A stretch of DNA of 64,000 nt from Enterobacteria phage vB_EcoM_IME339 (MH051915); one strand, 5' to 3'. Counted from the first letter of the stretch, positions 1 to 41,590 are shown. The notes: generated from the letters alone by a model not told the origin. Numbers and translations are program-made.

Positions 1-140
1 CCGAAAGGTTGGGGCTTTTTGGTATCTAGGCCTTTCTGGACCTCTCTAGTCATCATTTGGTTTATACCCTTTATAATATATTATCCTATCTTTTAATTGC
101 CCCTCCCTGCCCTAGAATTCCCTAAAACTTTTTAAAAAAT

Positions 141-229
141 TTTTCACAAAACGGTTTACATCTCTGTTCTTCCATGGTACTATACAACTATCAACTACTG
201 ATACAGAAAACAACTTGGAGAATGAAATG
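141..229 (+). promoter_or_regulatory. repeated promoter-leader cassette, copy 1
   Basis: GTTTAC (154-159), 18-nt spacer, TACTAT (178-183); conserved leader 'caactatcaactactgatacag'; GGAG SD; ATG 227. Same module recurs at five other sites. Confidence 0.6.
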
Positions 230-490
230 GATAATTACGGCGAACTGTTCAACTTCTTTATGAAATGCGTTTCAGAAGATTTCGGTCGTACAGTGAATGA
301 TATTAAAGTTATCGGTCCTGATCATCCGATGTTTGAAACTTACGCAGTAATGGGTAATGAAGATGGTCAGTGGTATACTGTAAAGGTTGTGATTAACATG
401 TTTACAGCAGAAGGTTATGTTAAACTGTCTTCTAAAGTTTACCACGATAACGACGAAATCGCAGAAGAATATTTCAATAATATGAAATAA
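227..490 (+). CDS. hypothetical protein (87 aa), first cargo gene behind cassette copy 1
   Basis: ORF track 215..490 (TTG); internal ATG at 227 follows GGAG SD. Confidence 0.5.
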   Translation: MDNYGELFNFFMKCVSEDFGRTVNDIKVIGPDHPMFETYAVMGNEDGQWYTVKVVINMFTAEGYVKLSSKVYHDNDEIAEEYFNNMK

Positions 491-3886: not shown

Positions 3887-4417
<531 letters not shown>

Positions 4418-4421
4418 AGTT

Positions 4422-4451
4422 GTTTACTTTCTCCTAGAATTGTGATAGTAT
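4422..4451 (+). promoter_or_regulatory. early promoter upstream of denV
   Basis: GTTTAC, 18-nt spacer, TAGTAT. Confidence 0.5.
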
Positions 4452-4476
4452 ATTCACAGTTACTTGGAGGGATAAA

Positions 4477-4893
4477 ATGACTCGTATTAATTTGACTTTA
4501 GTATCTGAACTTGCTGATCAACATTTAATCGCAGAATACCGTGAACTGCCGCGTGTTTTTGGTATAGTTCGTAAACATGTTGCAAATGGTAAACGGGTTA
4601 AAGATTTTAAAATATCTTCCGAGTTTATTTTAGGTTCTGGTCATGTTACGTTCTTTTATGATAAGTTAGAATTTTTGCGAAAGCGTCAATCAGACATTAT
4701 AACGGAATGCTTAAAACGTGGGTTTAGTATAAAAGATACTGAAGTTCCTGACATCAGCGATATTCCAGCAGAATGGAAAAATGATTATAATCCATGCAAA
4801 TCAGCTATTAAGTTGAGTCAACAACGACTCGATGAAAAAATTTTAATGAAGCCACACTGGTATAAATACTACGGTAAAAATATTTACATTTAA
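4477..4893 (+). CDS. denV: endonuclease V (pyrimidine dimer glycosylase)
   Basis: 138 aa, [28 protein letters not shown]; strong similarity to recalled T4 DenV. Confidence 0.93.
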
Positions 4894-4902
4894 AGGAAAC
4901 AC

Positions 4903-5376
4903 ATGAAAACATATCAAGAATTTATCACTGAAGCAGCTATTAATTCTCAAATTATTGCTGAATCTTTTACTGATCTTTTGAAATTTAAAAAAGGTCAAAA
5001 AATCACTGCTGTATTGGATGATGGTACAGAAGTTGAGATGGATGTACAGGGATATAATTATGCAGTAGATGGAAAACTGTATAATAAATCTCACGCTAAA
5101 TTTGATTCATTTGACGACTTTGTTAATACAGTTGAAGATGAAAAAACTCGTAGATCAATTTCAACTGGCGATGCTAAGGTTCTTATGGCGCACGGCCATG
5201 AACGTATCCGCGCCAAACAGAATAAAATGGGTGAAGATAATTTTGCATTAGTTGGTTATCAATCTGGTAAGCAAACTTATGGCTATCAGCGTACTGCTAC
5301 CATGTATAACAAAAATGGTAAAATCGCTTTCGTGAATAGCAAAGGCTCTATTCAGTACGTCAAATCATTCAAATAA
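4903..5376 (+). CDS. internal protein with capsid-targeting N-terminus (IPII/IPIII-like)
   Basis: Starts MKTYQEFITEA, the CTS motif of T4 internal proteins; basic 157-aa body. Lies after denV rather than between e and denV. Confidence 0.7.
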   Translation: MKTYQEFITEAAINSQIIAESFTDLLKFKKGQKITAVLDDGTEVEMDVQGYNYAVDGKLYNKSHAKFDSFDDFVNTVEDEKTRRSISTGDAKVLMAHGHERIRAKQNKMGEDNFALVGYQSGKQTYGYQRTATMYNKNGKIAFVNSKGSIQYVKSFK

Positions 5377-5529
5377 GCAAATAAGAAATATGGGAACAAG
5401 CTGGACCTCATGATTCTATGAGGGATTCCCGCCAACCTGTAATAAGGTCGAGCCTGAGTGCGGTAATGGGTAAATACAGAAATGGACAATTCATGCGCCA
5501 TGGAATGGCCCAAATTTAGAGAGAATAAA

Positions 5530-6069
5530 ATGAGAACATTTTTAACTGGTCCTTATCTATCCCTGATGAATGCTTTTACACACCATTCTGATGCTAGAGT
5601 AGAAGAAATTTGTAAAAACGATTATATCCCACCATTTGAAGACTTACTCAAACAGTATTGCACACTTCGACTAGATGGTGGACGTCAATCTGGTAAATCA
5701 ACTGCTGTGACTAACTTTGCTGCTAATTGGCTGTATGACGGTGGAACAGTTATTGTTCTTTCTAATACTTCAGCTTACGCTAAAATTTCTGCGGGCCACA
5801 TTAAAAAAGAATTTTCGCGTTATTCTAATGATGATATTCGATTCCGCTTATTTACTGATTCTGTGCGCAGTTTTATTGGCAATAAAGGAAGCAAGTTCAG
5901 GGGTTTATTGCTTTCGCGAATTTTGTATATAATTGATGAGCCTGTTAAAGCTCCCGATATGGATAAAATTTATGATATTCATATTGACACTGTACATTAC
6001 TGTTGCAATAGCAAGTGTTGCATTGGTGGTATTACTCGCCCGCAGTTTTTCGTAATTGGAATGCAATGA
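5530..6069 (+). CDS. small P-loop NTPase (about 180 aa)
   Basis: Walker A GGRQSGKST, Walker B-like ILYIIDEP; ORF track 5482..6069, ATG 5530 chosen. Confidence 0.5.
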   Translation: MRTFLTGPYLSLMNAFTHHSDARVEEICKNDYIPPFEDLLKQYCTLRLDGGRQSGKSTAVTNFAANWLYDGGTVIVLSNTSAYAKISAGHIKKEFSRYSNDDIRFRLFTDSVRSFIGNKGSKFRGLLLSRILYIIDEPVKAPDMDKIYDIHIDTVHYCCNSKCCIGGITRPQFFVIGMQ

Positions 6070-6403: not shown

Positions 6404-6766
6404 ATGAAAGCATATCAAATTCTTGAAGGCACGCATAAAGGTACTATTTATTTTGAAGATGGTATTCAAGCGCGAATTATTGTTTCTAAAACCTTTAAAG
6501 AGGACTCTTTTGTAGACCCAGAAATTTTCTATGGTTTGCATGCCCGTGAAATTGAAATTGAAACACAACCTACAGTTAAAATTGAAGGTGGTCAACACCT
6601 GAACGTTAACGTTCTGCGTCGTGAAACTCTGGAAGATGCAGTTAAGCATCCGGAAAAATATCCGCAGCTGACCATCCGTGTATCCGGTTATGCAGTTCGC
6701 TTTAACTCTCTGACTCCGGAACAGCAACGCGACGTTATTGCTCGTACCTTTACTGAGAGTTTGTAA
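6404..6766 (+). CDS. autonomous glycyl-radical cofactor (GrcA/YfiD-like; T4 Y06I-like)
   Basis: C-terminal RVSGYAVRF glycyl-radical motif; last ~60 aa recalled as matching E. coli GrcA; local GC/codon shift. Confidence 0.85.
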
Positions 6767-41478: not shown

Positions 41479-41590
41479 TCTGGACCTCTGGAATTCATTA
41501 AAAATTTTTTTCACAAAATGGTTTACATCCCGGTTCCTTTGTGGTACTATACAACTATCAACTACTGATACAGATTTGGAGAATGAAATG
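41479..41590 (+). promoter_or_regulatory. repeated promoter-leader cassette, copy 4
   Basis: Shares 'tctggacctct..gaattc..ttttcacaaaa(c/t)ggtttaca...ggtactatacaactatcaactactgatacag..ttggagaatgaaATG' with copy 1. Confidence 0.6.

Follow-up and report, generated by a model that had tools for sequence, protein, structure and literature searches.

The closest described relative of the RNA reported here is SroH of Escherichia coli (b4691, Rfam RF00372), a chromosomal, separately transcribed sRNA of 161 nt that has its own Rho-independent terminator and is encoded between yjaZ and thiH. In E. coli K-12, sroH occupies positions 4328-4488 of our locus L048; thiH is on the same strand and ends 247 nt upstream of it. 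The literature reports envelope-stress sensitivity of a deletion mutant, polyadenylation and PNPase binding of the RNA, its accumulation in stationary phase, and one target supported by EMSA; a 2012 survey found sroH to be lost in several E. coli and Shigella lineages. Our literature search returned no paper tying sroH to phages or describing the T4 region upstream of vs.8 as RNA.

Phage T4 itself has the non-coding RNAs rnaC and rnaD (species 1 and 2), which are associated with tRNA genes. Three-way-junction riboswitch aptamers (purine, TPP and similar) combine a compact junction and invariant unpaired nucleotides with variable helices and loops. T4-type phages are also said to carry promoter-early stem-loop cassettes, in which the stem-loop stands immediately before the early promoter.

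The window analysed here is a stretch of 64,000 nt from Enterobacteria phage vB_EcoM_IME339 (MH051915). The region of interest is 96-97% identical to Tequatrovirus genomes, and its + strand is the direction of the T4 early genes. A sequence-only reading had pointed to a GC-rich, structured, non-coding stretch with hairpin potential, followed by a small P-loop NTPase gene. The features of the locus are as follows.

4477-4893: denV
4903-5376, + strand: gene of the internal virion protein Ip (DUF7412, phrog_3155; E = 1e-95 for Pfam DUF7412, E = 1e-101 for phrog_3155)
5377-5529: non-coding gap of ~153 nt, from the end of Ip (5376) to ATG 5530
5392-5513, + strand: whole RNA element, ~120 nt (5′ domain, three-way-junction core, 3′ box), supported by phage matches, presence before vs.8 in every T4-like genus sampled, and GC content
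5392-5430, + strand: 5′ domain, helix P0 enclosing an internal loop and hairpin P0a
5392-5396 with 5426-5430, + strand: P0, GGGAA with UUCCC
5397-5405, + strand: internal loop CAAGCUGGA
5406-5411 with 5418-5423, + strand: P0a, the hairpin of the sequence-only reading
5431-5471, + strand: three-way-junction core, 74.6 bits with model R1, supported by covariation
A5434-U5467, C5433-G5468, C5432-G5470: P1, with G5469 bulged
5435-5438 with 5445-5448: P2, loop GUAAUA
5449-5451: J2/3, CGA
G5452-C5461, C5453-G5460: P3 (2 bp), with a variable 6-nt loop
5462-5466: J3/1, GGUAA
5482-5513, + strand: 3′ box, AUGGA-N8-AUGNGCCANGGAAUGGCCC, kept in T4-like phages only (alignment A5)
5418-5519, + strand: 33-codon ORF, which PinkRuby annotates as a CDS and the T4 record joins to vs.8; in our judgement no gene, but a by-product of the RNA
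5530-6069, + strand: vs.8 orthologue, a stand-alone ASCE/RecA-like P-loop ATPase of 179 aa, with Walker A at residues 50-57 and Walker B at residues 132-138
3′ of the vs.8 orthologue: vs.7, then the vs.6 (GrcA-like) gene

The order Ip, vs.8, vs.7, vs.6 is the T4 order, and 15 nt separate the Ip stop codon from the RNA element. The high GC content was borne out: positions 5400-5499 have a GC fraction of 0.49, against a window mean of 0.345 (sd 0.05), a value this high being found in only 0.3% of the 100-nt windows. No promoter-like or terminator-like site was found on the + strand of 5377-5529, and ARAGORN found no tRNA or tmRNA genes in the window. Further downstream (window 6406-6766 and beyond, and the gene tables of L077 and L079), we observed the GrcA-like glycyl-radical cofactor gene (vs.6), the Acb2/anti-CBASS gene (vs.4), regB and a ValRS modifier gene. 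With such neighbours, the RNA element heads a block of host-takeover and anti-defence genes.

The core was derived from an alignment of 23 phage sequences (A1), which gave P1 (3 bp), P2 (4 bp and loop), P3 (2 bp and variable loop) and the joining strands C-R-A and GGUAA, and which was the basis of model R1. The consensus reads ...CCA-ACCU[loop]AGGU-CRA-GY[loop]RC-GGUAA-UG(G)G..., with invariant junction nucleotides. When 35 sequences were aligned to the model (A8), they were best described by a P1 with a bulged G, and compensatory changes were found in five of the nine core pairs. The counts in A8 were as follows.

P1 closing pair: AU 24, CG 5, UG 5, UA 1
P1 third pair: CG 24, GC 5, AU 4
P2 first pair: AU 33, GC 1, GU 1
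P2 fourth pair: UA 29, AU 5
P3 second pair: CG 24, GC 6, UA 4, AU 1

Canonical pairs filled 94.8% of the cells in A8, compared to 31-40% with the partners slid by 1-3 columns, and the observed covariation score was reached by none of 500 shuffles. The length of P2 ranged from 3 or 4 bp to 17 bp across the sequences. That the + strand is the functional one follows from the U-G pairs. Two biases must also be noted: the retrieval patterns behind most of the sequences included the invariant core, which partly builds in the invariance of the core positions, and sequences aligned to a model tend to agree with it. The retrieval patterns left the covarying positions free, except for a purine/pyrimidine limit at the P3 position in some scans. 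A Pectobacterium match (L061, 31.8 bits), which was selected by pattern and lies antisense inside a dmsA-like ORF, is probably spurious; it stayed in A8.

The support for the structure is comparative and not thermodynamic, since the whole gap folded alone shows no unusual stability (MFE z = -0.24). Folds of single sequences disagreed with each other. Forcing the junction cost 6-12 kcal/mol in the nearest-neighbour model, which does not favour it; this cost suggests that stabilising tertiary contacts or a bound partner must be assumed. An alternative P3 proposed by RNAalifold (GCC/GGU) was rejected, since sroH breaks it whereas the 2-bp P3 covaries. Two small hairpins in the 3′ box, P4 (5482-5485/5491-5494) and P5 (5497-5500/5506-5509), were rejected, with no covariation and three violations. 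Judged by the comparison of sequences, the gap holds an aptamer-like fold that is backed by covariation.

The 5′ domain varies more than the core. The hairpin noticed earlier (cctcat-gattct-atgagg, 5406-5423) proved to have compensatory changes in relatives: P0a is CCUCA/UGAGG in locus L020, CUGAA/UUCAG in sroH, CACAU/AUGUG in rV5-like phages and CUACG/CGUAG in L035, and in the same order P0 is GGGAG/CUCCC, GGAUG/CAUCC, GGGG/CCCC and GGAAC/GUUCC. The architecture of P0, asymmetric internal loop, P0a and short linker is common to the T4-type and rV5-type copies, L035 and sroH, with a sequence that differs and is self-complementary in each. The Mosigvirus-type relatives have a different 5′ hairpin, and P0 is broken in L019, which leaves only the junction as universal. 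In three metagenome/viral contigs (L129, L134 and L045), GGGAG...CUCCC seems to pair around the core as a whole, which would be another way to close the junction; within this subfamily, the L3 loop is wholly different (CGUGU compared to AGAUG).

About 1000 phage records matched the ~153-nt gap. All T4-like genera sampled have the element ahead of vs.8, even at 45-59% Vs.8 protein identity. Four distant T4-like genomes found via their Vs.8 proteins (L076-L079) carried the core ~60 nt upstream of the vs.8 ATG (E = 1e-10 to 1e-21), with a core identity of 74-92% compared to 64-71% for vs.8 DNA. With a 45-nt piece of the gap, matches extended to phages outside the T4-like group. Scans with patterns and the inspection of individual records placed the core in rV5-like phages (Vequintavirus), KP591P1-type Klebsiella siphophages and a 360-kb jumbo phage contig, as well as in ~43-kb and 90-96-kb phage contigs and in marine and other metagenome contigs. 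Most of these non-T4-like copies share their strand with tRNA genes, at distances of ~60 nt to several hundred nt, and in L036 an 11-bp intrinsic terminator follows directly 3′ of the core. With the fold kept and covarying in T4-like genera, in unrelated phages and in a host sRNA, the structured intergenic element of the sequence-only reading has stronger support than a single sequence could show.

Two side observations concern these phages. In the rV5-like phages, the tRNA cluster that contains the SroH-like element also contains a tRNA-like gene of ~98 nt (L003 3083-3181; L018 1714-1812; L069 270-367), to which ARAGORN assigned a four-base anticodon (atcc); one record annotates it as tRNA-Stop(tta). 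In the 288-kb Klebsiella phage vB_Kpn_AM_K4 (L005 2040-2250), the element ends early, after AUGUGC, and 3′ of it lie two copies of a ~130-nt unit (gtgatagttccacatgttgagtataatgctcgcggatgcggaatgcagag...) resembling a repeated promoter cassette.

At gathering thresholds, Rfam gave no match to the element, the threshold of sroH being 80 bits. The check in Rfam that had been proposed for the hairpin was therefore empty at curated thresholds, but at E <= 10 it returned, besides a chance snoRNA match, a weak match to sroH (RF00372; 8.2 bits, E = 9.7) that proved to be a true lead. Model R1, built from phages with no bacterial sequence, found E. coli sroH at 36.4 bits (E = 2e-8 in 235 kb, ~4e-7 when scaled to the whole genome), and random loci that matched the retrieval pattern alone scored 10-22 bits with R1. 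The sroH core has the form AACCUG...AAGGUC-AAG-GC-N5-CC-GGUAAUGG, and the two sequences align as follows.

sroH: ...CAUCCCGC-AACCUG[CGauuauCG]CAAGGUC-AAG-GC-AAAGU-CC-GGUAAUGGCG...
window: ...GAUUCCCGCCAACCUG-UAAUAAGGUC-GAG-CC-UGAGU-GC-GGUAAUGGGU...

The P3 pair is G-C in sroH and C-G, U-A or A-U elsewhere. Outside the reach of model R1, sroH and the phage element also have in common the P0/P0a architecture and the flanking words UCCCGC(C)AACCUG. The sroH orthologues of other enterics (L068, L104 and L143) keep the core, with a P2 of 3 to 17 bp and a covarying P1, and metagenome contigs yielded further sroH orthologues with divergent P2. In 5,426 E. coli genomes, BLAST found nothing that matches the element; set beside the R1 match, this means that the relation to sroH is visible only to a structure-aware model. 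A strict pattern scan of one genome for each of 185,579 species returned 0 matches, and with a looser pattern the core turned up in Escherichia and Shigella alone (sroH), the other matches being chance ones in coding regions. The likeness of the sroH flanks to the T4-type element goes beyond what the core model demands, a possible sign of exchange between T-even phages and Escherichia. No Rfam family covers the element, and a phage-borne, probably mRNA-embedded relative of SroH is new to the literature searched.

Existing records read part of the gap as protein, in one of three ways: an N-terminal extension of Vs.8 (219 aa, T4 record), a Vs.8 starting at ATG 5482 (195 aa), or a separate 33-aa peptide (5418-5519). 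The T4 record begins vs.8 at the equivalent of 5418 (L001 1531-2190 = NC_000866 64253-64912, 219 aa), PinkRuby annotates the 33-aa ORF as a CDS (L002 1542-1643), many database clusters (194-196 aa) have their first codon at the 5482 equivalent, inside the 3′ box, and the frame reading QPVIRSSPSAVMG is open in most T4-like phages. In the window, however, the frame opened at 5418 ends at 5517-5519 and is not in register with vs.8; in T4 it is in frame only through an 8-nt insertion. Starts are missing or frames interrupted in L016, L033, L023 and the rV5-like phages, the different P2 length of sroH changes the frame, and L013 and L033 read the 3′ box in different frames. The pattern of substitution also argues against coding: changes fall in RNA loops and covarying pairs, and the third position of an ATA codon never varies, whereas its first and second positions do. 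PHROGs has no family for the 33-aa product. Moreover, every full-length Vs.8 homologue starts, and aligns, from M(R/K)TFLT, which marks ATG 5530 as the conserved start; the 219-aa Vs.8 of the T4 record has, in addition to the ~179 aa of the conserved protein, 40 N-terminal residues that come from translating the RNA element. We therefore give a protein-coding gap hardly any credence, and the T4 reference annotation should be corrected, the first 40 codons of its vs.8 being the RNA element.

The ORF itself (5530-6069) belongs to the T4 Vs.8 family, as indicated by phrog_1488 (residues 3-179, E = 1.3e-78) and by synteny, and is 90-97% identical to close relatives. T4 Vs.8 has the same Walker A and B motifs and the same place upstream of vs.7, vs.6 (GrcA-like) and regB. 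The two motifs noticed from the sequence, Walker A (GGRQSGKS) and Walker B (ILYIIDEP), were confirmed as invariant or nearly so in 17 homologues, GGRQSGK and IIDEP being invariant. In the AlphaFold2 model (pLDDT 81), the protein forms a single RecA-like ASCE domain of alternating strands and helices, for which Foldseek returned helicase, RecD and terminase ATPase domains (probability 0.9-1.0, with TM only 0.4-0.5, the best neighbours at 0.45-0.5). Sequence searches of Pfam, NCBIfam, PADLOC and the PDB gave only sub-threshold AAA, terminase or PtuA matches. Assignment as a terminase large subunit was rejected: Pfam Terminase_6N reached 14.6 bits compared to a cut-off of 22, and the protein has 179 aa and no second domain. 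A profile search of 1.84 billion representative proteins found only 51 Vs.8 clusters, mostly stand-alone proteins of ~130-185 aa or shorter fragments, and no larger Vs.8 family. Vs.8 is an ordinary orthologue in a narrow, phage-specific ATPase family. The sequence-only reading had named a plain orthologue of a known T4 vs.x ORF as what would refute it for the NTPase, and such an orthologue is what the profile search showed (E = 1e-78 for T4 vs.8, phrog_1488); this half of the locus yields nothing beyond a vs.8 orthologue.

A different reading of the gap would place its function in the DNA, either as a recombination or mobile-cassette scar related to certain early-promoter cassettes or as a protein-binding site. 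It starts from the 9-mer ctggacctc, which the sequence-only reading had linked to cassette copies 1 and 4. On the + strand of the window, CTGGACCTC occurs three times (36, 5401 and 41480), compared to 0.09 expected, and the other two copies stand ~100 nt upstream of two early-promoter cassette copies (window 100-230 and 41490-41590) of the form ttttcacaaaa-GGTTTACA-N17-GGTACTATACAACTATCAACTACTGATACAG...GGAGAATGAAATG. In addition, the gap adjoins highly variable Ip genes, and cassette copy 4 reads ATGATTCT-GGACCTC, permuted with respect to GGACCTC-ATGATTCT in the RNA element. The sharing is real, but its link to the cassettes is not convincingly above chance: the two cassette copies are one repeat and count as one independent event, and since the 9-mer was chosen post hoc from ~140 candidates, one extra match among them is unsurprising and the sharing is weak evidence. 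A DNA site would not be expected to show compensatory changes by which pairing is kept, strand-specific G-U pairs among them; the + strand of the gap lacks promoter-like and terminator-like sites, and the window has no second copy of the core (next best R1 match, 9.8 bits). A DNA-level feature is thus very unlikely. The gap was also rejected as a promoter-early stem-loop cassette, with no promoter-like site 3′ of the hairpin, and the true early-promoter cassettes in the window look different.

On comparative grounds, the conservation of the element, its + strand, its covariation-supported fold, its homology to SroH and its non-coding nature can be taken as established. Our best guess for its function is a host-factor-binding, SroH-like RNA. 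As no promoter or terminator of its own was found, the + strand of the gap would be part of the Ip-to-vs.8 early-region message, in which it would form a folded RNA domain of ~120 nt. The junction is constant, whereas the flanking domains, downstream genes and transcript contexts vary, so that the ~40-nt junction is most likely a recognition site at the RNA level; the factor recognised would be one that enterobacterial hosts share, either a protein or perhaps a small ligand. The phage copies would then mimic or compete with host SroH. The occurrence of the junction in an mRNA leader, in tRNA clusters, in a terminated short transcript (L036) and in a host sRNA favours such a self-contained module binding a host factor. 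In the T4-like phages the module would have become fixed in the vs.8 leader, and it may also affect the vs.8 message. On balance, we consider it rather probable that the conserved ~120-nt RNA with its SroH-homologous junction is a recognition module for a common host factor, and that the phage copies imitate or compete with SroH.

The serious rival, given the strict linkage to vs.8, is regulation specific to vs.8 in T4-like phages. The element would then be a cis-acting leader, riboswitch-like or a protein operator, in which the junction binds a ligand or protein and the 3′ box is the expression platform for vs.8 translation or message stability. Throughout the T4-like genera the element keeps its tight link to vs.8 while the genes before it change (denV, various Ip genes, lysozyme), a pattern that suits a role in cis no less than one in trans. 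The spacing from core to vs.8 ATG is constant at ~60 nt, the conserved unpaired junction nucleotides are aptamer-like, and the 3′ box (5493-5511) could pair over 12 bp with the 3′ part of the core (99% of cells). This alternative pairing, however, does not covary (99.1% observed compared to 98.9% in shuffles) and is no stabler than with shuffled downstream sequence (z from -1.8 to +0.9, median near 0). Forcing the junction left the predicted accessibility of the ribosome-binding site and start codon unchanged in 14 of 18 sequences. Elsewhere the same core stands before unrelated genes or before none, and it is also found in a terminated sRNA; in L016 the element, 3′ box included, precedes an Ip gene and not vs.8. 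A leader dedicated to vs.8 is, on this evidence, unlikely.

The host-factor-binding reading has a broader form, in which the SroH-type junction would be an unrecognised class of ligand- or protein-binding RNA. Virulent enterobacterial phages of five or more unrelated lineages (T4-like, rV5-like, the KP591P1-like Klebsiella siphophage type, a jumbo phage, and others) would have captured it, or would share it with their hosts, so as to mimic or titrate the partner of SroH. We hold this form to be possible but rather doubtful; if true, it would amount to widespread phage RNA mimicry of a host regulatory RNA.

Compared to the systems described above, the element resembles the three-way-junction riboswitch aptamers in its compact junction, invariant unpaired nucleotides, variable helices and loops and, in T4-like phages, its position in a 5′ leader. 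It differs from them in that no Rfam riboswitch model matched even at E <= 10, in the lack of a consistent class of downstream genes outside the T4-like phages, and in the lack of a supported expression platform. The non-T4 copies of the core share with T4 rnaC and rnaD the association of a phage non-coding RNA with tRNA genes. Unlike those RNAs, to which it has no sequence or model similarity, the element lies 5-6 kb from the T4 tRNA region; the best R1 match in the T4 tRNA-region locus (L047) scored 9.7 bits and fell outside the rnaC and rnaD features, and we rejected both as relatives.

SroH differs from the phage element in being transcribed separately, as the element has no promoter-like or terminator-like site of its own, in a longer P2 (7 to 17 bp) and in lacking the T4-type 3′ box, and the Rfam model of sroH, with which the element scores 8.2 bits against the 80-bit threshold, carries no structure. 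One of the best-studied viruses thereby gains a conserved structured RNA, and SroH, an orphan sRNA, gains its first covariation-supported core structure and a large phage kin, with ~1000 phage records for the T4-type region alone. Both the role of SroH and the use of a host sRNA module by lytic phages become testable, with SroH and the T4 element side by side. Like the phage element, SroH has the three-way-junction core, preceded by P0, an internal loop, P0a and a short linker, in the setting of similar flanking words.
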